Both the position numbers and the translations under genes were made by a program. A stretch of DNA of 64,000 nucleotides, taken from contig JABFGG010000003.1 in NCBI GenBank assembly GCA_013112575.1, positions 152,898 to 216,897 on the forward strand, read 5' to 3'. Origin of the DNA: Chloroflexota bacterium (GTDB lineage Bacteria > Chloroflexota > Anaerolineae > Anaerolineales > UBA11579). Shown here piece after piece: positions 13,336-29,715 of the stretch. Positions within the stretch are counted from its first letter, which is position 1. Each line of letters begins with the position of its first letter. Under the pieces are notes generated by a model. The model was not told where the DNA came from and did not search any database. It saw nothing but the letters and a program-made list of their open reading frames with translations.

Positions 13336-13371
13336 AAAATTGTGTAACCTTTTAGTACTAGTTTACGTTAT
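13336..13371 (+). promoter_or_regulatory. candidate ECF-type promoter AAAATTG-TGTAAC-N17-CGTTAT
   Basis: TGTAAC at 13343-13348 and CGTTAT at 13366-13371. Same architecture and flanks as the motifs upstream of the sigma fusion and both beta-helix genes. Confidence 0.4.
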
Positions 13372-13446
13372 TTGGGCATATATCTATTTTGGTGTGCAAT
13401 TGTTTCTGATACAATTGCGCCCAATTTTTAATTCGAGGAGGAAGAA

Positions 13447-14121
13447 GTGAAACCTTTGAAACAAACCCGTTTATTCTTTTTTGGTCTGGCGATATTGCTG
13501 GCCTCTGTAGCCTGTGGCCTGGGTGATGTAACCGGCTTGATCGGTGGAGGCGGGGCATCTGGCCCAGAAGGCTCTGTATACTATGATGACTTTTCGAGTA
13601 CGTCGAGTGGTTGGGCCCAGTATGATGACTTCGATGGCATCAATGACTACGCCGATGGCACTTACCGTATCCTGGTGAACGACACTGAGTATTTCTCCTG
13701 GAGCATCATCGACGAAACTTTCAGTGATGCCAGTATTGAAGTTCAGGTTGTGGGAATGGGCGGCCCCTTTGATGCCGAGGCTGGCATTATATGCCGCTAT
13801 GTGGACGATAATAATTTCTATTTAATGACCATCACTGCGGATGGGTTCTATGCCATTTCGAAGTTCGTCAATAATGAATTCACAGCGCTAACCGGTAATG
13901 GTGATTACGCTGAAAGCAGCCTTATCAATCAGGGTAATTCGAGCAATGCCTTGCGTGCGGACTGTGTTGGTTCAACTCTGAGCCTGTATGTGAATGGGAC
14001 ACTGGTGGACTCGGTAACTGACTCGTCTTTAACCAGTGGTGATGTTGGTCTGGTAGCCGGTACGTTCACCGAACCGGGGTCTGATATCATTTTCGACGAC
14101 TTTACTGTTTATAACCCCTAA
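13447..14121 (+). CDS. lipoprotein consisting of the jelly-roll domain alone, paralog 2
   Basis: GTG start after GAGGAGGAAGAA. Lipobox LASVAC. Ends GDVGLVAGTFTEPGSDIIFDDFTVYNP. Confidence 0.7.
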   Translation: MKPLKQTRLFFFGLAILLASVACGLGDVTGLIGGGGASGPEGSVYYDDFSSTSSGWAQYDDFDGINDYADGTYRILVNDTEYFSWSIIDETFSDASIEVQVVGMGGPFDAEAGIICRYVDDNNFYLMTITADGFYAISKFVNNEFTALTGNGDYAESSLINQGNSSNALRADCVGSTLSLYVNGTLVDSVTDSSLTSGDVGLVAGTFTEPGSDIIFDDFTVYNP

Positions 14122-14142
14122 GAAATAGAGTTCAAAAATAAT

Positions 14143-14170
14143 AAAACGCCCGGCATCGCCGGGCGTTTTT
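14143..14170 (+). terminator. rho-independent terminator
   Basis: AAAACGCCCGG-CATCG-CCGGGCGTTTTT, a GC-rich stem plus T5. Confidence 0.8.
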
Positions 14171-14251
14171 GCTTTTACAAGCTATTTCATTTAATATGCA
14201 GTCATATGCCGCCCGGATTGCACGAATTGGGTATGCGGTGTAAAGTGGGGC

Positions 14252-15532
14252 ATGATGTTCAAGCAATGTGTGACCTTGCATAAATCCTGGTTTTCTATCC
14301 TTCTGCTGGCATTTTTTATAGGTGCCTGTGCAGCCCCGCCTACCGCGGAAGAGGATAAATCCTTGCCGGTTTTGCCTACCCTGCCAACCGAAGAAGAAGA
14401 TGTGCTTGCGCCTCCCGCTTTGGTGGTTCCTGAGGAAGAAGTCAATCCCATAGAAGAAAGCAGCGGACAACAAAGCCCTCAAGAATTGCTGGAGGCCGGC
14501 AATGCTGCAGAAGTGGCAGGTGATCTCGAGTCTGCATTGGGCTATTATGACCTGGCAATCCAGACAGCTCCAGAATACCCGGAAGCGTATTACACGCGGG
14601 CGCGTTTGTTCGCCGATTTGGCCCAGCCCTTGCTGGCGATAGAAGACTATAACCGGGCTATCGAACTGCAGCCGCAATGGGCATTAGCTTTCTATGGGCG
14701 CGGCGTGGCTTATTTTAATGCGGGAGACGGACAGCAGGCTGTGCTGGACCTGTCGGAAGCGATCCGCATCGATCCCACTATTGCCGAGGCCTACCGCGAT
14801 CGCGCCATTGTGGAACGCGGTTTGTACCTGCCCGAGTCGGTGATCGCTGATTTGCAAGTGTATCTGGCGCTGGCCCCTGATGCAGAAGACCGGCCGGATA
14901 TTGAAGCCTTGATTGGTGAATTGGAAGATGAGATTCTGCGCCTTGAAGTTTCTACGGAAGGCTTACCCTTTTTTGACGATTTCAGTGACAACTTGGCAAG
15001 CTGGTTCGACTCTACCGTACCGGAGTTGGGTGAAGTGGGCGAGGGCAAGCTGGACAGCGGCGGCTATCGTATTACCGTTGATGATGATCGTTTTGCCATT
15101 TGGGCGCGTACCGGGGCAAGTTTTACTGATATAGCTATTAATGTAGATGCGACCAAAGTTGGGGGGGATGATGATAATTTTTATGGTGTGATCTGTCGCT
15201 ATCAGAATATTGAGAATTTTTATGCTCTACTGGTGAGCAGTGATGGCTTCTATGGCATCGCCAAACGCCTTGACGGGGGTTCATTGGAGGCTTTCCGCGG
15301 TGGTCTGGAGCCAAGTGATGTGATCAATAAGGGCAGCGGGACCAATCGCATTCGGGCAGTGTGTGCACAGAGTACGATCAAGCTGTACGTCAATGATGTG
15401 TTGTTGATGCAGGTCACGGATAGCTCGATTCCCTTTGGGGACGTGGCGATGATCGCGGGTACTTACGATGTGCCCGGTACGGATATCCTGTTTGACAATT
15501 GGCAGGTAGAAGCGGCTTTGCCAACAGATTGA
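14252..15532 (+). CDS. lipoprotein with TPR repeats and C-terminal jelly-roll domain, paralog 3
   Basis: Lipobox FIGAC. About 4 TPR units (AYYTRARLF..., AFYGRGVAYF..., AYRDRAIV). Ends GDVAMIAGTYDVPGTDILFDNWQVEAALP. Confidence 0.75.
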   Translation: MMFKQCVTLHKSWFSILLLAFFIGACAAPPTAEEDKSLPVLPTLPTEEEDVLAPPALVVPEEEVNPIEESSGQQSPQELLEAGNAAEVAGDLESALGYYDLAIQTAPEYPEAYYTRARLFADLAQPLLAIEDYNRAIELQPQWALAFYGRGVAYFNAGDGQQAVLDLSEAIRIDPTIAEAYRDRAIVERGLYLPESVIADLQVYLALAPDAEDRPDIEALIGELEDEILRLEVSTEGLPFFDDFSDNLASWFDSTVPELGEVGEGKLDSGGYRITVDDDRFAIWARTGASFTDIAINVDATKVGGDDDNFYGVICRYQNIENFYALLVSSDGFYGIAKRLDGGSLEAFRGGLEPSDVINKGSGTNRIRAVCAQSTIKLYVNDVLLMQVTDSSIPFGDVAMIAGTYDVPGTDILFDNWQVEAALPTD

Positions 15533-15571
15533 TTTGAGTAATTGGGTTTTACAGCTATTGATTTGATATAT

Positions 15572-15604
15572 AAAGACCAGCCCAACGGCTGGTCTTTCCT
15601 TTTG
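15572..15604 (+). terminator. rho-independent terminator
   Basis: AAAGACCAGCC-CAAC-GGCTGGTCTTT followed by CCTTTTG. Confidence 0.7.
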
Positions 15605-15702
15605 CTGACTCCTTACATAGACGACGGCAGTCCGCATCTACGCTAAATGTCTTTGAGGCATGGGTAACCACCAGGTTCACTTCTGTTGCTTCCAAACTGC
15701 CC

Positions 15703-15733
15703 TTGACTTTAACCCTACGTCAAACTCCATAAT
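15703..15733 (+). promoter_or_regulatory. MerR-type promoter/operator P1 (TTGACT-19 nt-CATAAT with TTGAC...GTCAA dyad)
   Basis: The 19-nt spacer and internal dyad are read directly. Near-identical to P2 at 15984. Confidence 0.55.
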
Positions 15734-15739
15734 GACGGA

Positions 15740-15881
15740 ATGCTTTGCAATCAGCATGGATATGATGGATAACCATGCCGTCACCTGGCTGCACGTAATA
15801 CCTGAGCGCAGTTACGGACGCCATTAGAAAAACCCGCTCCAAAGATAAAGCAGCCACTACCGTAAGGACGTGGCTGTTTTT
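15740..15881 (+). other. short transcript predicted from P1 to a terminator (possible sRNA or 23-codon ORF 15756..15827)
   Basis: Bounded by P1 and the hairpin at 15851-15881. The ATG at 15756 opens a 23-codon frame (MDMMDNHAVTWLHVIPERSYGRH) with no clear RBS. Confidence 0.3.
15851..15881 (+). terminator. rho-independent terminator
   Basis: CAGCCAC-loop-GTGGCTG followed by TTTTT. Confidence 0.6.
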
Positions 15882-15983
15882 GATTCTAATGAGTAAGGAC
15901 AGGTGGCGAGGCTTTACATCGCTTATACCTGCCCTAACCCTTTTAATCCTCTGGGTTCTAACGTAATATTTATAAATCGGGGG

Positions 15984-16014
15984 TTGACCTTAACACTGTG
16001 TCAAACTCTATAAT
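15984..16014 (+). promoter_or_regulatory. MerR-type promoter/operator P2 (TTGACC-19 nt-TATAAT with TTGAC...GTCAA dyad)
   Basis: The 19-nt spacer is the hallmark of MerR-activated promoters. Lies immediately upstream of the merR-like gene. Confidence 0.65.
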
Positions 16015-16042
16015 GAGCGCAGTTAATACAAAAGAGGTAAAC

Positions 16043-16909
16043 ATGTTCCAAATTGGTGAGTTCTCCAAAATCGCAAGAGTGACAACCCGCATGCTGCGGC
16101 ATTACGACAAGCTGGGGCTGTTGACGCCCGACAAGATTGATGAGCAGACAGGCTACCGCTACTACAGCGCCCAGCAATTGCCACGCTTGAACCGCATCAT
16201 TGCCCTCAAAGACCTGGGACTCACCCTGGACCAGATTGGGCGCTTGCTGGAAGAAAGCATTTCCGCCGACGAGATCCGCGGCATGTTGATGATGAAGAAA
16301 GCGGAGATCGAACAAACACTGGCGGATGAAGTGGAGCGTTTGCGTTCGGTGGAGTCACGTTTGGTGCAGGTGGAACAAGAAGGGGTGCTGCCGGACGTGG
16401 AAGTGATATTAAAGAGTGTGCCGAAGAAGCGACTCCTTGCGGTCAGGGAGATCTGCCACAATGGCCTCCCGGACGCCCTGGCACTGTTCAAGGAGATCAC
16501 TATGGCTTTGCCGGCCCACGTTGACCAGAACATATTGGGGCAGTTTGTGGCACTTTCGCATTCAGAGACGTTTTTGAGCAAAGACATTGACGTAGAAATT
16601 GGTGTCTTCATTGAAGACCAGGATTATGAGGGTGAAGTAAACCTACCCGGTGGGGAAACCATGGTGTTACGGGAATTGCCAGCCGTAGAACTGATGGCCA
16701 CAATGATCGCGGTGGGTGCGCCGGATAAACGCCATATCGGCTATGGCAACCTGGGGCTCTGGGCAGAGGCCAATGGCTATGCTATTGTGGGCAACGAACG
16801 CGAAATCATCATAGAGCCGCCGCTGCCCGGCAGAGAGGAAGAGGGGGTAGTCGAAATTCAATTACCGGTGAAGAAGATCGAGGAAGAATCCATTCGTTTA
16901 TTACCCTGA
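16043..16909 (+). CDS. MerR-family transcriptional regulator with GyrI-like (BmrR/TipA-type) effector domain
   Basis: MFQIGEFSKIARVTTRMLRHYDKLGLL HTH, coiled-coil, then a GyrI-like C-terminal half. The ATG at 16043 follows AAAGAGG. The track start at 15998 lies inside the promoter. Confidence 0.85.
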   Translation: MFQIGEFSKIARVTTRMLRHYDKLGLLTPDKIDEQTGYRYYSAQQLPRLNRIIALKDLGLTLDQIGRLLEESISADEIRGMLMMKKAEIEQTLADEVERLRSVESRLVQVEQEGVLPDVEVILKSVPKKRLLAVREICHNGLPDALALFKEITMALPAHVDQNILGQFVALSHSETFLSKDIDVEIGVFIEDQDYEGEVNLPGGETMVLRELPAVELMATMIAVGAPDKRHIGYGNLGLWAEANGYAIVGNEREIIIEPPLPGREEEGVVEIQLPVKKIEEESIRLLP

Positions 16910-16955
16910 AGCGCGCAACAGGGTGATCTTAAAAACCAATTACAGGAGCGAATTA

Positions 16956-17465
16956 ATGATGACCAATTTGTATTATGAAGCCAAAACCAGCGCCTCTCCT
17001 GAGAAGATCTGGGAGATCCTGGCAGACCTGGGTGGGGTAATGTACTTCCATCCTTACGTGGAGAATTCGTATTACATCTCCGAGGATAAGGAAGGGGTGG
17101 GCGCAGCGCGCATCTGTGAATTCTTCAATGGGATGAAGATTGAAGAGACGGCGGCAGACTGGCAGCCCGGAAAGTCCTACACAGTTAATGTAGCCATGTT
17201 GGCGGGGATGACGCCGCCCATCGATACGCCTACGGGCGAACTGGGTCTGGAAGCTGATAGTGATGGCACTTGCATCTATATGCGCATTACTTACACCCCC
17301 AGGTACGGGTTGCTCGGCAGGGTCATGGATCGTGTGATGATTCGCAGGCAGTATGAAAAGATGATCCCCAATATCCTGCGGGGCCTCAAGCACTACGCCG
17401 AGACCGGTGAAGTGGTGGACTACGAAGTGTTCAAAAAACTTGAAAGCATTCCAACGGCTGTATAG
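16956..17465 (+). CDS. SRPBCC (polyketide cyclase/dehydrase-like) ligand-binding protein
   Basis: About 170 aa, START/Bet v1-like pattern. AGGAG lies 8 nt before the ATG at 16956. Confidence 0.65.
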   Translation: MMTNLYYEAKTSASPEKIWEILADLGGVMYFHPYVENSYYISEDKEGVGAARICEFFNGMKIEETAADWQPGKSYTVNVAMLAGMTPPIDTPTGELGLEADSDGTCIYMRITYTPRYGLLGRVMDRVMIRRQYEKMIPNILRGLKHYAETGEVVDYEVFKKLESIPTAV

Positions 17466-17508
17466 CGATTGGAATTACAAATATGAATAGAAGGAATAGA
17501 GTGCAAAC

Positions 17509-18324
17509 ATGAACGATTTCAAACAAACCTACGGTCCCTGGGCCGTGGTGACTGGAGCATCCTCCGGTATCGGTGAAGAATTTGCCCGCCAACTGGCATC
17601 GAAAGGATTGAACCTGGTGTTAGTAGCGCGGCGAAAGGAAAAACTGGATGCGTTGGGAGAAGAACTGTGCATGCAGCATGGCATCGACTATCGCAGCGCC
17701 AAAGTTGACCTTGCGGATACCGGTATTTTGGACGCAATTGAAACTGCAACGCATGACCTGGATATTGGTTTGCTGGTTTCGAATGCCGGATATGCCAAGA
17801 TGGGCGAGTTCCTTACCTTGCCTGCCGAAGAGCTGGAAAAGATGCTGCGCCTGAACGTGGTCACGCATATGGAATTGAGCCACTACTTTGGCAACCGCAT
17901 GGTCTCTAAGGGACGCAAAGGCGGTTTGCTACTAGTGTCATCCATGGCTGCTTTCCAGGGTGTGCCCTACCTGGCGAATTATTCTGGGGCTAAATCCTAT
18001 ATCCTCAATTTAGGGGAATCATTGAACAATGAGTTGAAGGACAAGGGCATCGATGTCTCGGTGTTGGTTCCTGGACCAACAGATACTGAGATGATGACCA
18101 GTGTGGATGCCGATATGAGCAGTATGCCGATGCCAGCTATGCCAGCCTCGCAAGCTGTTAAAGAGGCTCTACAGGCTCTGGAGCGTAACAAGCCTTATCT
18201 TGTTCCGGGAACATTGAACCGCTTGATGGTGGGGCTGATGGGACGACGGTTGTTAACACGCGGTGCTAACGTAAAAATGTGGGGGACGATAATGAAGCGC
18301 ACCTTGCTTCCCGTGAGCCGTTAA
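17509..18324 (+). CDS. short-chain dehydrogenase/reductase (SDR)
   Basis: TGASSGIG cofactor motif and YSGAKSY catalytic YxxxK. Confidence 0.85.
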   Translation: MNDFKQTYGPWAVVTGASSGIGEEFARQLASKGLNLVLVARRKEKLDALGEELCMQHGIDYRSAKVDLADTGILDAIETATHDLDIGLLVSNAGYAKMGEFLTLPAEELEKMLRLNVVTHMELSHYFGNRMVSKGRKGGLLLVSSMAAFQGVPYLANYSGAKSYILNLGESLNNELKDKGIDVSVLVPGPTDTEMMTSVDADMSSMPMPAMPASQAVKEALQALERNKPYLVPGTLNRLMVGLMGRRLLTRGANVKMWGTIMKRTLLPVSR

Positions 18325-18342
18325 AGATGTGCAATTTGTAAT

Positions 18343-18374
18343 AAAAAGCTCCGACATATTGTCGGAGCTTTTTT
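18343..18374. terminator. bidirectional terminator (SDR gene / cold-shock gene)
   Basis: AAAAAGCTCCGAC-ATATT-GTCGGAGCTTTTT. Confidence 0.75.
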
Positions 18375-18391
18375 GATTCTTGGAAAGAGCT

Positions 18392-18610
18392 TTATTCTAT
18401 TCCCCGCACTTCATGGGCTTCCGGGCCATTCTCACCTACTGTGAGTTGAAACTCGACGCGCTGCTCCGCCAAGAGGGCACGTTGCTCTTCATCTCCAATG
18501 ATGGCATTGAAGCGCACGTAGACGTCACCACCACCATCATCACGGACAATGAAGCCGTAACCCATGGTGGTGTTGAACCATTTGACTGTGCCGGTGTAAA
18601 TCTCTGTCAT
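18392..18610 (-). CDS. cold-shock protein (CspA family)
   Basis: GTVKWFNTTMGYGFI (RNP1) and VYVRFNAI (RNP2-like); 72 aa. Confidence 0.9.
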   Translation of the reverse strand: MTEIYTGTVKWFNTTMGYGFIVRDDGGGDVYVRFNAIIGDEEQRALLAEQRVEFQLTVGENGPEAHEVRGIE

Positions 18611-18765
18611 GGTAAACCTAGTATTTTTAGAATTAGTATTGAATTTTCATGGTTGATGAGCTGTTTGTCAAGCTTACACATCACTAAGCTAATTGATATG
18701 GCTCATTGGCTAAGGTATAGTTAGACTGAGGTAGTTGGTTGGGAGGCCCATTGCAAGGAGCGGAT

Positions 18766-19569
18766 ATGAGATCTGATGATCGCTTGGTTTTGACCTGTTT
18801 CGCAATCGTACTTGGATGTGGAGTTCTGATGGCATGCCTGGTAACGATGGGGAGCATAGGAATGATCGGGTGGACAGGCACAGTTCTGCAAGAGACATCG
18901 CAAGCCTACCAGACTAAAGCGGTCGAAACCGAGCAAGCTTACCAGGTAGATATCAAAGAAGCAGAAATGCTGTTTGATGAAGCTAAAGATTGGGAAGTTG
19001 TATTTAGTGATAGTTTTGATACAAATGAGAATGGCTGGGAGGATGACGCGTTTTCTTATGACTTGGTAGAAGGGGAGGTTGAGGTTGCCGATGGCAAGTA
19101 TTATTGGGATATGGAAGCCATTGAAGGTTTTATCTATTACGATTACCCTGAAATTGATGTTTTGGATGATTTTTACGTTGAAGTGGAGGCTGAACAATCT
19201 CGCGGTCCGGTCAATGGACAATACGGCTTAATATTTCTATATGCCAGCGGCAATTACTATTACTACTTTACAATCACTGAAGATCGCCGTTTTCAAGTTT
19301 ATCTACTCAGAGTCGGAAAGTGGGAAAGTATCATTCCACTCACTTTTAGTGAAGCGATCCAACCGGGAGAAAAGAATAAGCTGGCAATCATAGCAATAGA
19401 GGAAGACCTTTACTTTTATATCAACGACGCCTTCGTGCAATACGTTGGTAGTTCGTTATTGCTTCGCGGTCGAGTGGGGCTACTCACTGGTTTAAGGTTG
19501 GAAGGCGACACAGCTGAATTCGCGTTTGACAATTTTGAAGTGCGCGTACCGCCAGACGCGGGGGAATAA
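18766..19569 (+). CDS. membrane-anchored protein with C-terminal jelly-roll domain, paralog 4
   Basis: ATG at 18766 after AAGGAG. TM anchor LVLTCFAIVLGCGVLMACLV. Ends GRVGLLTGLRLEGDTAEFAFDNFEVRVPP. Confidence 0.65.
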   Translation: MRSDDRLVLTCFAIVLGCGVLMACLVTMGSIGMIGWTGTVLQETSQAYQTKAVETEQAYQVDIKEAEMLFDEAKDWEVVFSDSFDTNENGWEDDAFSYDLVEGEVEVADGKYYWDMEAIEGFIYYDYPEIDVLDDFYVEVEAEQSRGPVNGQYGLIFLYASGNYYYYFTITEDRRFQVYLLRVGKWESIIPLTFSEAIQPGEKNKLAIIAIEEDLYFYINDAFVQYVGSSLLLRGRVGLLTGLRLEGDTAEFAFDNFEVRVPPDAGE

Positions 19570-19582
19570 GGTTGGAAATTTC

Positions 19583-20062
19583 TTAGGCTTTCTCAGCGAG
19601 TTGTTCTTCAAGGTTAAAGAACCACACGCGTTCACCACGAAATAGTTCCTGTTCTGCATTCCAGGGGAAGAAGATCAAAACGTCAAATTCGACCGCTTTC
19701 CCCGAAGCATTATGGTGAAGCCATTTGCCTTCATGCGTGCCTGTAACGTGAGCTTCTTCAAAAACGCCTTGAGGTCCGATCACGATGTTTTGTAAATCAA
19801 AATGTACATCTGGGAAAGCTGTCAGTAATTCTGTATAGAAGCGCTCTGCCCCAGCGTGGCCGCGCCATTCAATTTCAGATTGAGGGATGGCATACACACA
19901 ATCTTCGGTGAGGGTGGCAATTAGGCCAGGGATGTCGCGGGCATCCTCTGCAACCGAATGGTCTCTCCACAAGCGGCGAATCTTTGTGAATTCATCTTTG
20001 TCGAGACGACGTCGCAGTTGGCTTAGGATATTGCTGTGGGCTTCGAGGGCAGGTTCACTCAT
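19583..20062 (-). CDS. SnoaL-like / NTF2-fold protein (ester cyclase-like)
   Basis: About 160 aa with a pattern typical of the SnoaL_2 family. Weak sequence-only call. Confidence 0.5.
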   Translation of the reverse strand: MSEPALEAHSNILSQLRRRLDKDEFTKIRRLWRDHSVAEDARDIPGLIATLTEDCVYAIPQSEIEWRGHAGAERFYTELLTAFPDVHFDLQNIVIGPQGVFEEAHVTGTHEGKWLHHNASGKAVEFDVLIFFPWNAEQELFRGERVWFFNLEEQLAEKA

Positions 20063-20123
20063 GGGGACTCCTTCTGAGGGCAGAGAGGTAAATCAAGCTT
20101 TCATTTTAACAGAGCAGAAAACG

Positions 20124-20155
20124 AAAAACGGGCTGCCATTTGGCAGCCCGTTTTT
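20124..20155 (-). terminator. rho-independent terminator after beta-helix gene 1
   Basis: AAAAACGGGCTGCC-ATTT-GGCAGCCCGTTTTT, a 14-bp stem with T-runs on both strands. Confidence 0.8.
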
Positions 20156-20160
20156 ATGAC

Positions 20161-22317
20161 TTAGGGGCAGATCACTTGTTGTTGCTGATTGAGATAACAG
20201 GGGATGGGTGTGTCCTCCGGTGCGGGCCGGTCGGATGTGGGCTTTGGTGTGGGGGTGGGTGGCTGCGGGACAGTAATCAGGCGCATCTCACTGAATGGAA
20301 TGCTGGGCGTGACGTCATCGCTATCCAGCCAGCAGTTGGTGTTGGCTACGTTGGGGTGAGAAGCTACCAGCCAATCTTGATTGCCATTGCCGGTGAAACC
20401 AGCACCGATCAATTGCGTTGATACACCCGAAGCTAAATTGCTGACGAGGCCATATTGCGGCCCAGGGCCGTTGTAACAGGGTGTAGTTGTAATGATGGTT
20501 ACTGTGCTGGGGCCGCCGGGTGTGGGGGTGCCGATGACAATGTCTGGGTCTTCCAGGGTCAGGAGGCTGGCACCAGTTTCGTAAGCGCCCGCATCACAAC
20601 TTGCTCCAACCGGGCGGCCAAAAGTACGTTGATCTTCCCCTAAACAAGAGCCGACCACGATGTCTACGGCTTCACTATCTGGGTCCAGGGCCAGGGTCCA
20701 GGTTTCGCCGCCATTGTCAGCCAGTGGGCCAATGCGCAATTCGGCGGGGGTAAAAGTCTCCGGGAAACCGCAGGTAGCATCGGAATCAACATTAGTGCCC
20801 TGTAGCGGGAAAGGAATGGCGCTGGGGCCGCTGCTGATGTTGCAGTCATCTAGACCATTTTCGGCGGCTAAGATACTGCGCACGAGGCTGACAGTATTTC
20901 CCCCCCTGAAGGCGGAAAGGCCAGATTCCCCGTTACGGGCGAGGGTGACAAAGCGCATAGCCAGGTCGCCATCGACTGCAATAATGCCGCTGTTGGTGTT
21001 TCCGGTGCTGGTTGAATTCAGCATGGTCATGTCGCCACGGTTTTCGATGCCGTCAAGTTCATTGTCGGCGATAAGGCTGCGATTGATGTAGGCTCGGGCG
21101 AGCGTGCCATTGTAGATGCCAGCATTACCGCCGTCATTCGCTCTGATGGTAGAGTCGAGAACCACTAAGTCGCCCGTTTCTGTCTGGTTCAGGATGCCGC
21201 CATTATGGTTATTTTCGATCAAGGAAGAATAAACGCGCAGCCAGCCCCGGCTTCCAATGCCGCCACCCAGGCTGGTGCCAGCATAGAAAGAGGCATTGTC
21301 GCGAACGGTGACCTCTTCAAGTGTGGCTTCGCTGGTTTCATCAATGAGGATGCCTGTGCGCGGGTTACTGTAAACGTTTCCTCCATTCATGGTGAGAATG
21401 GCATCGTCACTTAGTACGATACCCTCTTCATTCTCGAAGACATCTGTGTTTGTCAGGGTCGCTAAGCCCCCATCGATCCACAGGCCGGGATGATTCATGC
21501 TAAGGATATTGCCGTGCCCGCTGATATCTACACCCGTCAGGTTAGCGGTACCACTACTATAGACACCATAGGTGCCATTGTCCCTGACGATAGTGCCATT
21601 CATGGCCAGCAGGCCAGCGCTGCTGACCCCTGACATATAGTTGTTGGCAACTTCGCCACCCTGAATGTCCAGGTTGCCGCCAGAAACCCCGGCCCCGAAA
21701 GAGCCCTCAAGCTGAGTGGTGCCTGTCACATTTACGTTGATGAGCGTAACTAGGCCGGAACTGGAACTGCGGATGCCGTTGCCAATGCTGTCGACTACAT
21801 TGACATCTTCAACTATCACATCGGCGTTACCGCGAATTTCAATACCACTGCCGGGAGAATTGCCTGAGGCATTCTGGACTGTGAGATCTTCGATACGCAC
21901 GCGGGCGTCACCTGAAGCATAAAAAACTCCATACAATCCGCCGCCATCAATGAAGGTGCTGTCGCGGCCAGCTCCGGTAATGATCAAATTGTAGTCAATG
22001 CCCAGGGCGCTGGAACCTTCACGGAAACCTGTTTCAGGATAGGTTCCGGCAGCAATGAAGATTTGATCGTCATCGTCTGAGCGGGAAACGGCCTCTTGTA
22101 CAGTCAGGCAGGGGTCGTCAATGAAGGCACAGGAATTGCTGTCATCACCATCTGTGGCAACATACCACAAAGATGACTCTCGTTCTTCAGAAATGCCCGG
22201 TGTAGGGGTGCTGGTAGGCAAATTGCCCAGGATGTCCCGGGCCAGGTCCAATGGGCCGCAGGCCAGGGCTGTGAGCGTCATGGCGAAGACGCTGATGATA
22301 AGCTTTTTCTTGTACAT
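20161..22317 (-). CDS. right-handed parallel beta-helix lipoprotein with choice-of-anchor-Q-like region and C-terminal SH3-like/PT-linker/Cys-loop module (H1)
   Basis: Lipobox LTALAC. Many beta-helix repeats (N.A..GGGI-like turns). LADNGGETWTLAL...GEDQRTFGRPVGASCDAGAYE. The C-terminal approx 105 aa is shared with H2 and the sigma fusion. Confidence 0.8.
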   Translation of the reverse strand: MYKKKLIISVFAMTLTALACGPLDLARDILGNLPTSTPTPGISEERESSLWYVATDGDDSNSCAFIDDPCLTVQEAVSRSDDDDQIFIAAGTYPETGFREGSSALGIDYNLIITGAGRDSTFIDGGGLYGVFYASGDARVRIEDLTVQNASGNSPGSGIEIRGNADVIVEDVNVVDSIGNGIRSSSSGLVTLINVNVTGTTQLEGSFGAGVSGGNLDIQGGEVANNYMSGVSSAGLLAMNGTIVRDNGTYGVYSSGTANLTGVDISGHGNILSMNHPGLWIDGGLATLTNTDVFENEEGIVLSDDAILTMNGGNVYSNPRTGILIDETSEATLEEVTVRDNASFYAGTSLGGGIGSRGWLRVYSSLIENNHNGGILNQTETGDLVVLDSTIRANDGGNAGIYNGTLARAYINRSLIADNELDGIENRGDMTMLNSTSTGNTNSGIIAVDGDLAMRFVTLARNGESGLSAFRGGNTVSLVRSILAAENGLDDCNISSGPSAIPFPLQGTNVDSDATCGFPETFTPAELRIGPLADNGGETWTLALDPDSEAVDIVVGSCLGEDQRTFGRPVGASCDAGAYETGASLLTLEDPDIVIGTPTPGGPSTVTIITTTPCYNGPGPQYGLVSNLASGVSTQLIGAGFTGNGNQDWLVASHPNVANTNCWLDSDDVTPSIPFSEMRLITVPQPPTPTPKPTSDRPAPEDTPIPCYLNQQQQVICP

Positions 22318-22351
22318 GGTTTAGATCCTCTCTCTCGTGAGTTCTACTTAA

Positions 22352-22380
22352 TAAACGTATTCAGGTCAAATTTGTTATCA
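22352..22380 (-). promoter_or_regulatory. candidate ECF-type promoter TGATAAC-N16-CGTTTA for H1
   Basis: The reverse complement of 22374-22380 is TGATAAC and of 22352-22357 is CGTTTA. Lies about 35 nt upstream of the ATG. Confidence 0.45.
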
Positions 22381-22422
22381 ATTTTCTGTGCAGTATTACG
22401 TGTAGATGATTGATCTACTTTG

Positions 22423-23196
22423 TTACTTCTTCGTGAAAATGTGCCCGCAAAGGGGAGTTGTTGCAGAACCGAAGGGTGGTGAACCCAACCAGATATCGCT
22501 CAAAATCAGACGGCCTTGATCATCGATCAGGTAGGTTCCGGTGCCGTCGATGTTCTCGGGGAGATAATTGACGCCATCAGCTTGAATTTTGATGGTCTCT
22601 GTATCAAAACTGTATTCTCCGACATAATCGATGTAGGCTTCAAAGGGCCGCCAGGTGACACTGAGGCTGCCGTCGGCAGAGAAGATGAGTTCGCCAATGG
22701 GTTCCTCTACTGAGGTTTCATCGTAAGTGTCACATGTTTGTTGGGCCTTCTCTGTCCAGATGCCGACGAGCGGGTTGCCATCTAAGGAATAAACGGTGAC
22801 CTTTTCTTCGAAGACCTGCTGGCCTGAGGAAACAGAGGCTTGTACAGTGAAAGTCGCTCCGTTACCGACTTCGTCATCGGCAGTTAACAAACCGGTTTGT
22901 GTATCGATCTCGACTCCCTTTGGGGCATCTGCCAGAGACCAGTCTGCACTGGCTTCCACTGTTTCCCAGAATACACAACATTCAAGGGTAGCAAGCCTTA
23001 ATTCCAGTTGTCCGCCTGCTTCGATTTGCAGATTGCCACTTACGGGTGGACCTTCGATCTTTTGGGGGACTATTGAGATGGCCTCTGCATTCTCAAGGGT
23101 CGGTTGGGCGACCTGGCCGACTGAAGAACATGCCAGGGTGGCTACCAACAGTGCCAAAATGCTGATCCAATACCTTTTTATATAGATTGCTTTCAT
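22423..23196 (-). CDS. lipoprotein of unknown function, downstream of H2
   Basis: ATG at 23194-23196 after GAGGAGA. Signal/lipobox LLVATLACSS. The track start at 23265 adds an unlikely 23-aa extension. Confidence 0.6.
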   Translation of the reverse strand: MKAIYIKRYWISILALLVATLACSSVGQVAQPTLENAEAISIVPQKIEGPPVSGNLQIEAGGQLELRLATLECCVFWETVEASADWSLADAPKGVEIDTQTGLLTADDEVGNGATFTVQASVSSGQQVFEEKVTVYSLDGNPLVGIWTEKAQQTCDTYDETSVEEPIGELIFSADGSLSVTWRPFEAYIDYVGEYSFDTETIKIQADGVNYLPENIDGTGTYLIDDQGRLILSDIWLGSPPFGSATTPLCGHIFTKK

Positions 23197-23268
23197 GTTT
23201 AAACTCTCCTCTGCTCTAAAGGTAAACCCTTTTAGGAAGAATTTGTAACAGTTCTTGAGGGCCATAGC

Positions 23269-25479
23269 CTAGCAGGTGGGCACGCCGTTGCCGTTCAAGG
23301 GACACGGAGTAGGATCTTTGGCCGGTTCACGCGTCTCGTCCGGGGTAGGGAGGGGCGTGGGTGTGGGGCGGGCGGGAACGGTTATCAAGCGCATTTCGCC
23401 CAGTGGGATGCCAGTCGTGACGTTGTCGCCGGGCAGCCAGCAATTGACATTTTCGGCTGTAGGATGCGTGCCTACTACCCAGGCCTGATTGCCATTGCCG
23501 GTAAAACCTGCGCCGACCAATTCCATGGTGGTGCCTGCCGAGAAGTTATTGACAAAGCCCCAATCCGGGCCGGGGCCTGTGTAGCAGGGGGTGTCGGGGA
23601 TAAGCACGGTAATAGTAGTGGCGCCTCCCGGCTCTTCTTCGGCTGCTGTTGCAGGCGCCGCAGCAACAGCACCAGTCTCGTAAGCACCTACATCGCAACC
23701 TGCACCTACAGGTCGACCAAAATCACGCTGGTCTATAGGAGGACAGCTTCCGGTAGCAGCGTCGATGGCAGGGCTACTGGCTAACAAAGCATGAGTCATG
23801 GTCAGGCCGCCATTATCTGCCAATCCACCAAGGAGCAGGGCTGTGGGGGAATAGGTGGCTTCTACGCCGCAAGAGCCATCTGTATCGATGTTGACGCCGG
23901 AAGTAGTGCTGCCCTCCAGGCTAAGGAGGTTGATGCAGTCACTGGGAGCGTTGCGGGCGATGATGGTGTTGTCGACGTTGATGCCGGAAGTCAAAATGCC
24001 GAACTGGGTGTTCTCGGCGATGGTGGAGTAGGAGATCGTGGAATTGCCCCATAAGTATGCTCCCAACCCATTATTGTTGCTGATGGTGGTGTTGAGAATC
24101 CGAATCTCTCCGTCGCCTTCTACGCCTGCCCTGAAGCCCTCACCCGCAGCACCCTCAAGGGAGTTGTGCGCGATGAGGCTGTTATCGATGTGGAGAATGC
24201 CACCCAAGTTATAGATGGCGGGATAAGGCTCTTCGGGGTATACACTAGAGTAAAGGACATTGGTATAGCTCATATCCACAGTGCCGGTGGAATCATTTCT
24301 GATGGCTCCATCGCGATTGCGGAGCAATTCACTGTGGGTTATGGTCAGTGCCCCAAAATTGCTGATCGTCCAATTGCGCGGGCCGAGGGTGCCATTGTTC
24401 TCGAAGGTAGTCCCTTCAACGGTTGCCGACCCAGTGTCGGAGATGGAAAGGGCGGTTCCTGGATGATCGCGAACCGTGCTATCGATTAAGGTCAGGCTGC
24501 CGCCGGGGGAGACGTGGATGCCCCTATCGTTCTCCCGGATATTGCTGTTGTCGATCTGCATGGTGCTGTGGGTATCGATGCCGTAAAGATTGGCAGGCGC
24601 AAGATGGTTGTGGTGAACTCCAACAAAACTCAATTGCGCCGTCCCCATGCGGTGTTCGAGCCCCGCGAACTGATTCTGGGTCAGGGTCGTGCCTGTCAGG
24701 CTGATATTGCCCCAATTGAATATGCCAGTCTTATCGTTAGCAGCGATCTCCCCTCCATCGACGGTCATATCACCGAAATTGAGGATGCCGTGCTCGTGCC
24801 AGGTGCTCTCTGCCGGGCCGAAGCCCAGACCGTGTGCCCCGCTGATGTTGACGTTGATCAGCTCAACAGGCCCACTGCCGCGGTTCTCCACACCATTGCC
24901 AACGCAATCCACGAGGTTGACATCGACAACGCGTATTTCTGCGGTGGAGGTTTCCCCAATGTCGATGCAGTCACGTGCATTTTGTAGGGTCAGGTCCCGA
25001 ATAATGATGCGGCCTGCGCCGTCTATGGGGAAACCATTACTAACTTCGCCATCCACTCTGCGGTTAATGATGGTTGAGTCTGTGCCGGCGCCCATGATGG
25101 TGATGTTTCCCTCAAGTGAGCGGTAATAACTGTCATCCATCGTGTAGGTGCCTGGGCCAATGCGGACCACATGGTGGTTACGGCCTTCGGGGTCTGTCAC
25201 CGACAGAGCCAGACTAAGCGCGCGACCAACCGTTGCGCAAGGTGCAGGTTGGCAGTTGTTGAGATCTGATCCATCCGTGGCAACATGCCATTCCTGGATG
25301 AACAAATCGATGCCACCAACCGGTTCAGGTGGCGGACCACTTACCAGGGTCGGCGGCACGTCGATGATTGGCAATGGCGTTGGGCCTCCCAAAGTGCGAG
25401 GCATGTTGCAGGCTGTGAGTACCAATAATGTCAGAATGGCAATAGCAAAACTAAATTTCTTCTTGTAGGCAGGGTTCAT
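23269..25479 (-). CDS. right-handed parallel beta-helix lipoprotein, paralog of H1 (H2)
   Basis: Lipobox LVLTAC, beta-helix repeats, LADNGGLTMTHAL...IDQRDFGRPVGAGCDVGAYE, and the same C-terminal module as H1. Confidence 0.8.
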   Translation of the reverse strand: MNPAYKKKFSFAIAILTLLVLTACNMPRTLGGPTPLPIIDVPPTLVSGPPPEPVGGIDLFIQEWHVATDGSDLNNCQPAPCATVGRALSLALSVTDPEGRNHHVVRIGPGTYTMDDSYYRSLEGNITIMGAGTDSTIINRRVDGEVSNGFPIDGAGRIIIRDLTLQNARDCIDIGETSTAEIRVVDVNLVDCVGNGVENRGSGPVELINVNISGAHGLGFGPAESTWHEHGILNFGDMTVDGGEIAANDKTGIFNWGNISLTGTTLTQNQFAGLEHRMGTAQLSFVGVHHNHLAPANLYGIDTHSTMQIDNSNIRENDRGIHVSPGGSLTLIDSTVRDHPGTALSISDTGSATVEGTTFENNGTLGPRNWTISNFGALTITHSELLRNRDGAIRNDSTGTVDMSYTNVLYSSVYPEEPYPAIYNLGGILHIDNSLIAHNSLEGAAGEGFRAGVEGDGEIRILNTTISNNNGLGAYLWGNSTISYSTIAENTQFGILTSGINVDNTIIARNAPSDCINLLSLEGSTTSGVNIDTDGSCGVEATYSPTALLLGGLADNGGLTMTHALLASSPAIDAATGSCPPIDQRDFGRPVGAGCDVGAYETGAVAAAPATAAEEEPGGATTITVLIPDTPCYTGPGPDWGFVNNFSAGTTMELVGAGFTGNGNQAWVVGTHPTAENVNCWLPGDNVTTGIPLGEMRLITVPARPTPTPLPTPDETREPAKDPTPCPLNGNGVPTC

Positions 25480-25514
25480 GGGTTAGATCCTCTCTCTCGT
25501 TAGGTTCTGAGTAA

Positions 25515-25543
25515 TAAACGTAATAAGGGCCAAATAGTTATCA
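25515..25543 (-). promoter_or_regulatory. candidate ECF-type promoter TGATAAC-N16-CGTTTA for H2
   Basis: Same motif and spacing as upstream of H1. The about 70-nt leaders of H1 and H2 are nearly identical. Confidence 0.45.
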
Positions 25544-25819
25544 TTTTTCTTGTTTCCTGACATCTTTGGGTGATTTGACAGTGATCTTGATCTCAATAGA
25601 TGTGTCCTCATTCTCGTTCTTCTCCACTACATGATGGCGAAAAGTGTAGTTTCCAGTTTGATTTGTTTGTTGTTCTAAAAAGTCCAAAAGTTCGTAAATA
25701 GAGGCAAAATTGTTTCGTTCCTCTTTCCCTGGCTCTTCCAGCGAGGCTCGCCAAACTAACTGACCTTGTTCTTCAAGCTGCCATAAGCGCAGCATATAAG
25801 CCAGATAATCAGGCGGCAC
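25541..25819 (-). CDS. small hypothetical protein (LRLWQ...WRASLE...FASIYELLDFLEQQ motif)
   Basis: 92-aa ORF with a GTG start and no clear RBS. The N-terminal motif recalls a small conserved-hypothetical family, from memory only. Confidence 0.35.
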   Translation of the reverse strand: MPPDYLAYMLRLWQLEEQGQLVWRASLEEPGKEERNNFASIYELLDFLEQQTNQTGNYTFRHHVVEKNENEDTSIEIKITVKSPKDVRKQEK

Positions 25820-25948
25820 TTGAGAATACCAACTTGCTGTTAATCAGTGCCGGGTTGCAAAATGCTACAATATGTTGGTTAGGCGATGCAATTCTCATAG
25901 TCATTTGGCCAAAATTGTTGCGTGAATTGCAGTATAAATACCAAAACA

Positions 25949-25991
25949 GCGTTTCCAAAGGATTGCCAGGGCGTTTCCAACGCGTTTAAAA
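25949..25991 (+). promoter_or_regulatory. three phased direct repeats GCGTTTCCAA / GCGTTTCCAA / GCGTTTAAAA (22-bp and 11-bp spacing)
   Basis: Repeat starts at 25949, 25971 and 25982, read directly. Lies immediately upstream of the SARP/BTAD regulator start. Confidence 0.4.
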
Positions 25992-26003
25992 CCGAATCAT
26001 TTT

Positions 26004-28043
26004 ATGGAAGAAAAAGCGATAAGCATCCGTTTACTGGGATCATTCCAGGCTGAGTTGGGCGAAGGGCAGAAAGCCACATTTCGTTCCGATAGTGAACGCG
26101 CCCTATTGGCATTTCTCCTGATGGAAAAAGATCGCCCGCATCGCAGAGAGAGCCTGGGGGCTTTACTGTGGCCAGAAGTTAGCGAAAAACAAGCGCGCAA
26201 CAATTTGAGGGTGGCTTTACACCGCATGCGCCAGACGATGGAGGCCAATGGGCGGGAAGTCGTAATTGCCAACAACCGCGAACTGCAATTTAATGAAGAT
26301 GCGGATGTATGGTTGGATGTGTGGGCTTTTGAAGATGCCTTGCAGTCCGTGGAGTCTCATGACCATAAGGGCCTGGAAAGTTGTGTCAAGTGCCAGGAAA
26401 AACTCAGTGAAGCTGTTGAGCTTTACCGTGGCCCCTTTTTGCAGGGCTTCATGCTGGAAGATAGCCAGCCTTTCCTTGAATGGGTAGTTTTAAAGCAAGA
26501 ATGGTTACACCGCCAGGCATTGGAAACACTGGCAATACTTGCTGATGTACACGTGGCTTTGGAAGATTATGAGAAGGCAGAAGCCTTTGCGCGACGCCAA
26601 CTGACTCTGGAGCCCTGGAGAGAAGAGGCACATCGCCAACTGATGCATGCTCTGGCTCTGCGAGGTGAACGCAGTGCGGCGTTGGCACAATATGAAAGCT
26701 GCCGGGCTGTTCTGGAAGAAGAGTTGGGCGCGCCGCCTTCCGATACGACTGAGAAGCTTGTAGAAAGAATCCGTAGTGGAGAAGGTTATAGTGAAGAGCA
26801 AAGGGGTAGTACGAGAGTTAAACGAAAAGTTGAATTGACTGCAAGCACACGAGGATTCGACCGCCGTTGGCTTGTTGGCATAGCAGGAGTTGTTTTGTTG
26901 GTTGTGTTGGGTATTGTTGGCTTCGGAAGCATTTGGAGTAATTCCAAAAATGAAAAAAGGGGAGGGATTGCCTGGGAGTTTGAAGATGCGGGCGATACAG
27001 AAGGTTGGGTGCCTTTATATGACCTTGGCCCTTTGACCGTAAGAAGAGGACAACTGCATATCAATTCAACGGGTGATGACCCTTATTTATATATCCCGGA
27101 AGGTGTGGCATTCGATGCTCGAGAGCATCCGTTAATAGAGATGCGGATGAAAGTGTCTGATGGATATGTGGCCCAGGTGTTTTTCCACAATGAAGGTGAA
27201 ATTGATTTTGTGGAGGACAAATCTCAAGTTTTCCCCATTGTCCCAGACGGGGAGTTTCACACTTATATGCTTGATATGTCTGCACAGGATGGGTGGCAGG
27301 GTATGATCAGTGGGCTGCGCCTTGACCCCACGGATACAGTGGCTTCCGTGGAAATTGACTATATCCGCATTGTTCCCAAGGTAGAGGCGGAGAGCGCAGG
27401 TTTAATTGGGGGAAACGTGTATGACAATTTCAACGAACTGGGCTTCGATGGAGCCTATGATTCGGGCAAGTGGATCGAGCCGGATTGGCCGGGGTTAAAA
27501 TGTGAGATCTTCCAGCAAGATGGTGTGTTGCGGGCCTCTAATCATGAATCATTGATGGGATCGGGATGCACTTTTCGAGCCAAGCGACCGCTGGCAGTTG
27601 CTGGCGGTGAATTGGGCGATTATGCGGCAGATCTTCAACTGCTTGATACTCACAATGGCGGCTTTGCAGGGACCGTGTTGCGCATAACGACTGAGTTTGA
27701 AGGCGGGGGCTGGGCGGCGAGTTGTGGAATATTGGCGGATTTTGATGCCCTGAACGTGCAGTTTGACGTCAGCGATGCGCGGCTTAGCGAAGACGATTTT
27801 TTGTATCAGGCGAACCTTCCGGCTGACTACAATACCTGGTACGAAGTTGTGCTGCAAATTGATGAAGGGGCAAAGCGAATTACGTGCATGGTGGATGGAC
27901 AGGTTGTTGGGGAATACCTGCCCGAGAATGCTACCGAACTGGCTTCCGCTCTGATGAATCGCGAACTCGGTGTGTGGCACGAAACAGATGCTATGGCCAC
28001 CACGCTAATCGATGATGTCGAAATCCAAGTGAATTCAAGATAG
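26004..28043 (+). CDS. membrane-anchored SARP/BTAD-family transcriptional regulator with extracytoplasmic LamG/jelly-roll-like sensor region
   Basis: OmpR-type winged helix (IRLLGSFQAELGEG...LRVALHRMRQ), BTAD (LYRGPFL...EEAHRQLMHALALRGERSAALAQYESCRAVLEEELG), one TM helix (WLVGIAGVVLLVVLGIVGF), then about 370 aa outside. Confidence 0.75.
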   Translation: MEEKAISIRLLGSFQAELGEGQKATFRSDSERALLAFLLMEKDRPHRRESLGALLWPEVSEKQARNNLRVALHRMRQTMEANGREVVIANNRELQFNEDADVWLDVWAFEDALQSVESHDHKGLESCVKCQEKLSEAVELYRGPFLQGFMLEDSQPFLEWVVLKQEWLHRQALETLAILADVHVALEDYEKAEAFARRQLTLEPWREEAHRQLMHALALRGERSAALAQYESCRAVLEEELGAPPSDTTEKLVERIRSGEGYSEEQRGSTRVKRKVELTASTRGFDRRWLVGIAGVVLLVVLGIVGFGSIWSNSKNEKRGGIAWEFEDAGDTEGWVPLYDLGPLTVRRGQLHINSTGDDPYLYIPEGVAFDAREHPLIEMRMKVSDGYVAQVFFHNEGEIDFVEDKSQVFPIVPDGEFHTYMLDMSAQDGWQGMISGLRLDPTDTVASVEIDYIRIVPKVEAESAGLIGGNVYDNFNELGFDGAYDSGKWIEPDWPGLKCEIFQQDGVLRASNHESLMGSGCTFRAKRPLAVAGGELGDYAADLQLLDTHNGGFAGTVLRITTEFEGGGWAASCGILADFDALNVQFDVSDARLSEDDFLYQANLPADYNTWYEVVLQIDEGAKRITCMVDGQVVGEYLPENATELASALMNRELGVWHETDAMATTLIDDVEIQVNSR

Positions 28044-28214
28044 CAAAAAAGAGCTAGCCCATCATTGAAAATATAAGTCCCCCTTTTGAGATAGAGTGAT
28101 TCTAAACTGGGTATTTGAGAGCTTCCTCGCTACGCTCGGAATGACAGCTTTAGGTTCTGCAAGAAGTTTGTACCCCAAATGGTAACGGGAGCAACTAGCT
28201 GGATAAGTTTAGTA

Positions 28215-29675
28215 TCAGGGGCAGTATTGCTGCTGGTCTATGGCACAATCCGTAGGTTGTGGATCGTCACCAGGTTGGCGGGGGTCGTCTGGGGTGACGG
28301 TGGGTGTAGTTGTGGGTTTGGGAGGAATGAAGATGTAAGGAAGAACAGGGTTATCTTCGTCCAGGCTGATATCCCCCGCAATCAGCCAGCAATTCACATT
28401 CTCGATGTCCGGATGCGGTCCAACGTAATAAGGAACGTTAAAGCCCTCCCCAACAATCTTGATCTGAGTGCCAGCGGTGAGAGTGTTGACAATACCCCAC
28501 TGTAAGCCGGGACCTGAATAGCAGGTTGTATCTTCTTCTGCGGTTCCCAAAACTTCATCATCATCATCTGCTGGTTCATCCCCACCATCTGGTGGGAGGG
28601 GCGGAGAAACGTTCTCTGAATTCTCTGGGGTGCCTTCGAGCGCGGCGGTTGACAACGGTGTTTCTGTAATGAAAAGGGCTTCGACAGCTTCTTCTTCCGT
28701 TTCCTCTGGGGCTTCTACAGGCGCCACCGGAGGGGGAGGTGGTGGAGGGTCAAATATGGCCGCGAAAAGATTACTTTGTAAGGCTGCAATAACGCCTAGC
28801 ACGATAGTGGATGCAACGATGGCTACGCCACCGCCAGCAAGGACCTTGGGGCGGGCATTGCGCCAGCGTTTTCTACGGCGAAGGCGCTGCGTAGTGCCTG
28901 TGCGTTTGAGGATGCGCGGGCCCAAGCCAGCGGGCGGGATGAGCGGGATGAAGGCACTGAAGATCGTGGATACCGAAAGAAGATTGCGCTGGCGTTCCTG
29001 GCAGTATTCACAATCTTTGACATGCTGGCGGACGAGACGATCCTGAGCGCTGTCGGCTTCATTGTCATGGATGACGCCGATAAGTTCGCCCATGGTGGAA
29101 CATTCGGTGGAGGTTTCTTCCAGCAGCAAGCGAATGCCATAGGCTTCCTGGAATTTGTTGCGAGCACGATGGAGCAGAACCTTGACGTAGTCAATGGTAG
29201 TCTCCATGATCTCGGCGATCTCGTTGTAAGCATATTTGTGAAACTCGCGCAACAATAAAACCTCACGATACTGGGGGGCCAGTTTCTCTAGGGTTTTGCG
29301 CACACGTGCGGCAATATCGCCTTGAGAGGCAGCGCGTTCCGGGTCATTGTTGGGATCGCGGATGTTTTCAATCTGGTCGGCGGAATCGATCATATCGCGG
29401 TTCTGTCGGGTCTCATCAATAAAGCGATTGTGAACGATGCGAAAGACCCAGGCGCGGAAATTGTAGGGTGGGCCAAGACGCTTAAGGTTAGCGTGGGCGC
29501 GTATGAAAGCATCTTGTGTAAGGTCTTCGGCCCAGTCCTGATCATAAGCGAGGGTAACCGCATAGTTATAAACCGCCTGGAAATGCTCTTCAAAGAGATC
29601 TGCAAAAGCTTGCGGATCGCCCTGGGCGGCTTGCTGCACGAGGCGAGCATTAAGGTCAGTATGTGAGTCGTTCAC
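28215..29675 (-). CDS. ECF sigma factor fused to zinc anti-sigma (HxxxCxxC), TM helix and extracytoplasmic SH3-like module
   Basis: Region 2 (DLTQDAFIRAH...WVFRIVHNRFID), region 4 (QYREVLLLREFHKYAYNEIAEIM), HVKDCEYC, TM VLAGGGVAIVASTIVLGVIAAL, PPPPPPP linker. The C-terminal module is homologous to the H1/H2 termini. GTG start. Confidence 0.8.
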   Translation of the reverse strand: MNDSHTDLNARLVQQAAQGDPQAFADLFEEHFQAVYNYAVTLAYDQDWAEDLTQDAFIRAHANLKRLGPPYNFRAWVFRIVHNRFIDETRQNRDMIDSADQIENIRDPNNDPERAASQGDIAARVRKTLEKLAPQYREVLLLREFHKYAYNEIAEIMETTIDYVKVLLHRARNKFQEAYGIRLLLEETSTECSTMGELIGVIHDNEADSAQDRLVRQHVKDCEYCQERQRNLLSVSTIFSAFIPLIPPAGLGPRILKRTGTTQRLRRRKRWRNARPKVLAGGGVAIVASTIVLGVIAALQSNLFAAIFDPPPPPPPVAPVEAPEETEEEAVEALFITETPLSTAALEGTPENSENVSPPLPPDGGDEPADDDDEVLGTAEEDTTCYSGPGLQWGIVNTLTAGTQIKIVGEGFNVPYYVGPHPDIENVNCWLIAGDISLDEDNPVLPYIFIPPKPTTTPTVTPDDPRQPGDDPQPTDCAIDQQQYCP

Positions 29676-29685
29676 GTTTATCTAA

Positions 29686-29715
29686 ATAACGGGGTTTAGT
29701 GGGGTTTTGTTATCA
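29686..29715 (-). promoter_or_regulatory. candidate autoregulatory ECF-type promoter TGATAAC-N17-CGTTAT
   Basis: The reverse complement of 29709-29715 is TGATAAC and of 29686-29691 is CGTTAT. It lies only about 10 nt before the GTG start, implying a very short leader. Confidence 0.4.

Follow-up and report, generated by a model that had tools for sequence, protein, structure and literature searches.

The closest described counterparts of the gene treated here are the ECF52 fusions, such as SCO4117 of Streptomyces coelicolor, in which an extracytoplasmic function (ECF) sigma factor is followed by a zf-HC2 zinc finger, a transmembrane helix, a proline-rich linker and a binding domain outside the cell. 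Positive autoregulation of these fusions is putative, and their activation by proteolytic release has been proposed (PMC5826349, PMC8999054); ECF48, ECF53, ECF115 and IutY are the other sigma fusions nearest in kind (fusions reviewed in PMC8999054). Two further systems with separate polypeptides are relevant, sigmaW-RsiW of Bacillus subtilis and sigmaI-RsgI of Clostridium thermocellum. In the latter, the outside carbohydrate-binding modules of RsgI resemble those of the enzymes under its control, and sensor and products see the same polymer (PMC10328401, PMC4711584); the signal passes via proteolysis (PMC10328401, PMC4711584, PMC6852018). Here we describe a fused sigma factor encoded in a 64,000-nucleotide stretch of an uncultured Chloroflexota bacterium of the class Anaerolineae (assembly GCA_013112575.1, contig JABFGG010000003.1, positions 152,898 to 216,897, forward strand; this whole stretch is the window below), together with four copies of an ECF-type promoter motif that are probably its cognate promoters.

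The fused sigma factor and its known counterparts

The gene product is a sigma/anti-sigma fusion on one polypeptide, with the following parts.

28215..29675, minus strand: fused sigma factor of 486 amino acids, consisting of an ECF sigma factor, a zinc anti-sigma domain and a membrane anchor
about 29154-29597, minus strand: ECF sigma regions 2 and 4, from Pfam
29001-29102, minus strand: zinc anti-sigma motif C-x25-H-x3-C-x2-C, its residues invariant in the alignment
28779-28844, minus strand: transmembrane helix, from hydrophobicity
28728-28748, minus strand: poly-proline stretch (PPPPPPP at residues 310-316)
28383-28523, minus strand: SH3b-like domain, lying outside
28218-28250, minus strand: C-x8-C-P tail at the extreme C-terminus

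Regions 2 and 4 are the sole sigma regions of the protein, which places it with the ECF (group 4) factors. Pfam matches are Sigma70_r2 (5e-15, residues 27-93), Sigma70_r4_2 (4e-12, residues 124-174) and Sigma70_ECF (7e-5); TIGR02937 scores 105 bits with a cut-off of 42.9, and the best NCBIfam and PDB matches are SigM, SigY and SigW. Directly after sigma region 4 comes the anti-sigma domain with its H-x3-C-x2-C signature. Residues C192, H218, C222 and C225 are invariant across 15 aligned relatives, profile positions 193-262 match the anti-sigma domains of RsiW (1.3e-4) and ChrR (3.9e-4), and PF13490 is annotated in relatives of the protein. A single hydrophobic helix (residues 278-299, mean Kyte-Doolittle 2.3) and a proline-rich linker then lead to the outside domain, which has no Pfam match. 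No second ECF gene was found within the window.

Compared by domain order, the protein resembles ECF52. Unlike that group, which has been described as confined to Actinobacteria, the present family comes from Chloroflexi/Anaerolineae, and actinobacterial matches cover the sigma core only, at about 30% identity. SCO4117 carries a carbohydrate-binding module where the outside domain here appears SH3b-like or, elsewhere in the family, one of at least three other modules. A sensor that matches a domain of a neighbouring or target protein, as described below, has not been reported for ECF52. As in the sigmaW-RsiW system, the anti-sigma segment is homologous to RsiW, but sigma and anti-sigma factor form one polypeptide. 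The likeness to sigmaI-RsgI is that the outside domain resembles modules of the regulated secreted proteins; the sigma factor is an ECF factor and not sigmaI, its anti-sigma domain is of the zinc anti-sigma type and has a different fold, the two are fused, and the targets are beta-helix lipoproteins instead of cellulosomal enzymes. This resemblance is functional only.

Putative promoter sites and conservation of the motif

The four sites and the genes they precede are listed below. H1 and H2 denote two beta-helix lipoprotein genes.

29684..29719, minus strand: ECF-type promoter of the sigma gene, TAAATTGATAAC-N17-CGTTATTTA, GTG 12 nucleotides past the CGTT end
25513..25548, minus strand: ECF-type promoter of H2, AAAAATGATAAC-N16-CGTTTATTA, ATG 37 nucleotides past the CGTT end
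23269..25479, minus strand: H2, a 736-residue lipoprotein with a right-handed beta-helix, a choice-of-anchor Q domain and a C-terminal module (23272-23586)
22350..22385, minus strand: ECF-type promoter of H1, AAAATTGATAAC-N16-CGTTTATTA, ATG 36 nucleotides past the CGTT end
20161..22317, minus strand: H1, a 718-residue lipoprotein with a beta-helix, a choice-of-anchor Q domain and a C-terminal module (20164-20478)
13336..13374, plus strand: ECF-type promoter of a 224-residue lipoprotein gene, AAAATTGTGTAAC-N17-CGTTATTTG, GTG 77 nucleotides past the CGTT end
13447..14121, plus strand: the 224-residue lipoprotein gene, with a weak DUF1080 (3-keto-disaccharide-hydrolase-like) jelly-roll match

An earlier note on this DNA had quoted four motif copies, and all of them read exactly so at these sites. 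Their general form is (T)GATAAC or TGTAAC, a 16-17-nucleotide spacer and CGTT; each is intergenic and points toward a gene whose start codon lies 12-77 nucleotides downstream. The marks of ECF promoters, AAC in the -35, CGT in the -10 and a spacer of 16-17 nucleotides, are present in all four and in a fifth copy upstream of H3 (see below). Promoters of Bacillus sigmaX, sigmaW and sigmaM read TG(A/T)AAC-N16-17-CGT(A/C), to which TGTAAC-N17-CGTT is similar; unlike that class, the -10 in the window is CGTT followed by an A/T-rich stretch. The pattern TGATAAC-N15-18-CGTT occurs three times in the window with 0.06 expected, and none of 100 shuffles reached three. The looser GTAAC-N15-18-CGTT occurs twice with 0.88 expected, so the site of the 224-residue gene is not significant by core pattern alone; its case rests on flanks, position and conservation. 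Relaxed scans of the window showed no additional copies near gene starts, as had been claimed from inspection by eye.

The motif travels with the sigma family. Three family loci (L001-L003) were obtained by exact protein look-up and the rest through genome and metagenome scans; the nearest relatives in the genome collection are 49% identical. At 41 of 45 loci GT(A/C)AC-N17-CGTT stands directly upstream of the sigma gene at a fixed position, the CGTT ending 6-20 nucleotides from the start codon, and it is kept down to 29% protein identity while flanks and spacer diverge. The -35 varies by clade (TGTAAC or GATAAC in the closer relatives, TGTCAC in the more distant ones at 29-40% identity), giving a family consensus of TGT(A/C)AC-N17-CGTT from more than 40 loci. 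When five sigma orthologues (44-100% identity) are aligned, essentially only TAAC and CGTT are invariant. Over the 517 kb of family loci, [GA]T[AC]AC-N16-17-CGTT occurs 88 times, compared with 19.2 +/- 3.2 in shuffles (4.6-fold). In bioinformatic work, a group-specific motif kept in front of the ECF gene counts as the accepted signature of ECF autoregulation (PMC7826278); its presence at the 41 loci backs the autoregulation that had been read from the copy before the sigma gene.

Second copies stand before lipoprotein genes in at least 13 other family loci, where the products are beta-helix, choice-of-anchor Q or PMP-repeat proteins, N_BRCA1_IG-domain proteins and members of a 240-residue family. 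H3 (P0020, DWQ07_06570), a third beta-helix paralogue from the same metagenome-assembled genome, lies on another contig (QQUH01000003.1). It was found through the similarity of its C-terminus to the sigma factor, carries the same C-terminal module as H1 and H2, and is preceded by TGATAAC-N17-CGTT (L164, 5910-5937) with the ATG 63 nucleotides further on. This copy amounts to a successful prediction outside the window. In L002 (sigma 91% identical), the motif precedes both beta-helix orthologues and the orthologue of the 224-residue gene. Together, the fused ECF sigma gene, the family-conserved motif, the second copies and the H3 copy support the reading of an ECF regulon.

The sigma gene start lacks a Shine-Dalgarno sequence, and in L003 the upstream region reads CGTT-ATTTAG-ATGATG. 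As the start codon also follows CGTT very closely, the sigma mRNA may be leaderless or nearly so. The earlier note gave H1 and H2 almost identical leaders of about 70 nucleotides. The shared GAGAGAGAGGATCTAA(A/C)CCATG is indeed present upstream of both genes, but the leaders are about 30 nucleotides long, because the CGTT ends 36-37 nucleotides before the ATG; a length near 70 fits promoter plus leader of H1 and H2, or the leader of the 224-residue gene only. The sigma genes of the distant clade have a further conserved element of the extended -10 type, (C/T)(A/G)TGCTATAGTC, located about 45 nucleotides ahead of their ECF promoter (L100, L102, L104, L105, L108, L109, L111-L113 and L120), suggesting a dual promoter, basal and autoregulated.

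Sensor domain, target module and proposed mechanism

H1, H2 and H3 end in a C-terminal module to which the outside domain of the sigma factor (28218-28523) is homologous (E = 8e-16). In another comparison that domain matches H2 with E = 2e-15 and H1 with E = 1e-12, and the H2 module is 45-50% identical to the sigma C-terminus. The module comprises a small beta-barrel with two conserved cysteines (CY.GPG...NCWL), a Pro/Thr linker and a terminal C-x8-10-C(P) tail. An AlphaFold (AF2) model of moderate confidence (predicted local distance difference test, pLDDT, 60) had as its top Foldseek neighbours the SH3b cell-wall-binding domains of endolysins from Listeria phages, together with SH3b domains from clostridia, all at weak E-values (0.02-0.1). 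A word-indexed search for the module returned two fragments only. H1 and H2 both carry PF13229 (Beta_helix; 8e-15 and 2e-16) and, after the right-handed beta-helix, NF041518 (choice-of-anchor Q; 57.3 bits for H1, 77.8 bits or 5.6e-22 for H2, cut-off 25). The module follows the choice-of-anchor Q domain in both, a position that would fit an anchoring or binding role.

Such matching extends through the family. At 17 loci the sigma ectodomain matches the product of a neighbouring gene, and cross-comparison yields four module classes that match within but not between classes. In L085 (9992-14064), a Cys-rich domain of 145 residues that is unrelated to the module of the window links the sigma factor with a motif-driven beta-helix lipoprotein encoded next to it; here the ectodomain and the lipoprotein C-terminus share 44% identity (E = 4e-37). 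L121 and others also show sigma and neighbour with matching modules. The N_BRCA1_IG-type and 240-residue lipoprotein targets gave no match to the ectodomain of their own sigma factor. Separately, several modules that are otherwise unlike carry a similar Cys motif at their very ends (…C-x-C-P or C-x8-10-C-P), in sigma factors and partners alike: it is found in the window at 28218-28250, at the ends of H1 and H2, and in the L085, L088 and L110 targets. Its role may be that of a disulfide knot or of a recognition tag.

Since the SH3b-like module and Cys tail of the sigma sensor recur at the C-termini of the beta-helix targets, sensor and products most likely bind the same cell-envelope ligand or partner. 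The match between sensor and target domain, in several interchangeable versions, suggests that the signal chosen is the ligand or partner of the products themselves. A more specific idea, which we put forward tentatively and consider rather less likely to be right than wrong, is that the outside domain exists as a purposeful copy of the module with which the products anchor or interact. The sensor would then share an envelope site or processing machine with its own products, either in competition or bound beside them, and occupancy of that site by the products would feed back on release of the sigma factor. If so, one-component ECF systems would include product-mimic sensing, kept in Chloroflexi through at least four co-varying module types.

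Taking as observed the architecture, the promoter conservation, the target classes and the domain matching, we can outline how the system may work. Before any signal arrives, the anti-sigma domain probably keeps its fused sigma factor at the membrane by cis-inhibition. A signal reaching the outside domain then probably leads to cleavage, first outside and then within the membrane, and frees the sigma factor; this proteolytic step is modelled on the sigmaW-RsiW pathway and on the proposal for the ECF52 fusions. Once free and bound to core RNA polymerase, the sigma factor would recognize (T)G(A/T)TAAC-N16-17-CGTT and would drive transcription of its own gene, with positive feedback through a near-leaderless mRNA, as well as of H2 with the downstream gene orf280, H1, H3 on the other contig and, less certainly, the 224-residue lipoprotein gene. 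The matched module would couple synthesis of the products to the state of the envelope site.

The promoter and regulon are of a known kind, an ordinary ECF autoregulon. What may be new, at most as a variant, is the Chloroflexi family of fusions whose ectodomains vary together with domains of their neighbours; a search of the searchable literature, not exhaustive, found no description of such a family. With five promoters and a consensus from more than 40 loci, a regulon that can be tested is now available for sigma/anti-sigma fusions of uncultured Chloroflexi, a family that had not been studied. The claim is open to heterologous reporter and binding assays without culturing the organism, and the family offers orthogonal sigma, promoter and sensor parts.

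Competing readings and surrounding genes

Several points weigh against this account, in which all of the sites are predicted promoters. A weight matrix built solely from sigma promoters of other genomes ranks the four sites 1, 2, 4 and 8 among the 128,000 scored positions of the window. Comparable maxima also arise in shuffled sequence (mean 13.6 bits, maximum 21.0); the matrix is therefore not significant by itself and did not serve as proof. As paralogues, H1 and H2 are not fully independent observations. In L002 (assembled at 5.5x coverage, with frameshifts), the copy before the H1 orthologue has TGTT and a 15-nucleotide spacer. The SH3b assignment is based on a model of pLDDT 60 with weak Foldseek E-values (0.02-0.1). 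Protease genes were not identified, nor were equivalents of PrsW and RasP for the window sigma factor. At the 224-residue gene, the -35 is degenerate (TGTCAG) in the 77% identical orthologue (L001), and the following element of its leader is invariant in the window, L002 and L001 (a three-sequence alignment).

13407..13415, plus strand: extended -10-like TGATACAAT, inside the leader of the 224-residue gene, downstream of the ECF-type motif

From the sequence, TGATACAAT may be a second, housekeeping-type promoter, which suggests that the 224-residue gene is under dual control or mainly under housekeeping control. The regulon could accordingly be narrower, with this gene transcribed mainly from TGATACAAT and an ECF-like site that is weak or vestigial, as the invariance of the element beside the degenerate L001 -35 would imply. 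The protein also lacks the C-terminal module common to the sigma factor, H1, H2 and H3. Set against this, TGTAAC-N17-CGTT is the family consensus, the site has the best matrix score in the window (16.9 bits) and it is conserved in L002. Dual promoters of housekeeping plus ECF type occur commonly, and the same pairing is seen at other family loci. We consider the narrower regulon unlikely, though it is the most credible of the alternatives; the 224-residue gene is the weakest regulon member.

That the motif has another reader is much less probable. The candidates are the housekeeping sigma factor, a SARP/BTAD regulator (26004-28043) encoded between the sigma gene and H2, or an ECF sigma factor encoded elsewhere; TTGATA does resemble a sigma-70 -35, and related ECF sigma factors cross-recognize promoters in Bacillus. 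A sigma-70 promoter was rejected: the nearest -10-like hexamer lies 20-21 nucleotides from TTGATA, too far, and a sigma-70 consensus scan was empty at the sites. The SARP/BTAD regulator was rejected as well. Its gene is missing from L001, L002, L003 and other family loci that retain the motif, and there are no tandem heptamer repeats at the sites. Finally, the window has no other ECF gene, and the motif accompanies this sigma family. The reading in which the motif similarity is a duplication leftover or chance, H1 and H2 being paralogues and the other two sites coincidence, can draw on the unenriched GTAAC-N15-18-CGTT and on matrix scores inside the null range, but it is highly improbable and already largely refuted: H1 and H2 share no more than 36% protein identity, and upstream of the two genes the sequence has diverged outside the -35, -10 and ribosome-binding blocks, which argues for selection rather than a duplication relic, the sigma, 224-residue and H3 sites lie in unrelated contexts, and the motif is both retained before distant sigma orthologues and enriched in family loci. 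We regard the sigma factor of 28215-29675 as the probable reader of all four sites.

The remaining features concern the surroundings of the targets.

14143..14169, both strands: bidirectional terminator hairpin after the 224-residue gene
22423..23265, minus strand: orf280, a lipoprotein of unassigned fold, probable start Met24
20124..20155, minus strand: strong intrinsic terminator hairpin of 14 pairs, closing the H2-orf280-H1 block

The first of these hairpins makes the 224-residue gene monocistronic. The DUF1080 match of its product (Pfam E = 0.0047) is below the gathering cut-off. Four paralogous DUF1080-like jelly-roll domains occur within 9 kb (10760-11677, 13447-14121, 14957-15508 and 19000-19551); one is fused to a TPR protein, and the ECF motif precedes only one. 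A leader hairpin at 13394-13420, which carries a T-run and overlaps TGATACAAT, was considered as an attenuator and rejected, its 5' arm not being conserved in L002 or L001. Directly downstream of H2, orf280 is probably co-transcribed with it because no terminator lies between them.

A 92-residue open reading frame (25541-25819, minus strand; …YMLRLWQLEEQGQLVWRASLEEPGKEERNNFASIYELLDFLEQQT…) has a TGA stop codon that falls within the H2 promoter -35. The frame matches no Pfam entry and adjoins the SARP/BTAD regulator. The regulator and this frame are missing between the sigma gene and H2 in L002. Relative to L002, the sigma-to-MFS block of the window holds three insertions: a MerR/SRPBCC/SDR/276-residue group (15998-19569), orf280 (22423-23265), missing in L002, and the SARP regulator with the 92-residue frame (25541-28043). 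Elsewhere in the family, in L090, L092 and L094, a histidine kinase and a response regulator (about 7126-9412 in L090) follow the sigma gene in place of a beta-helix lipoprotein.

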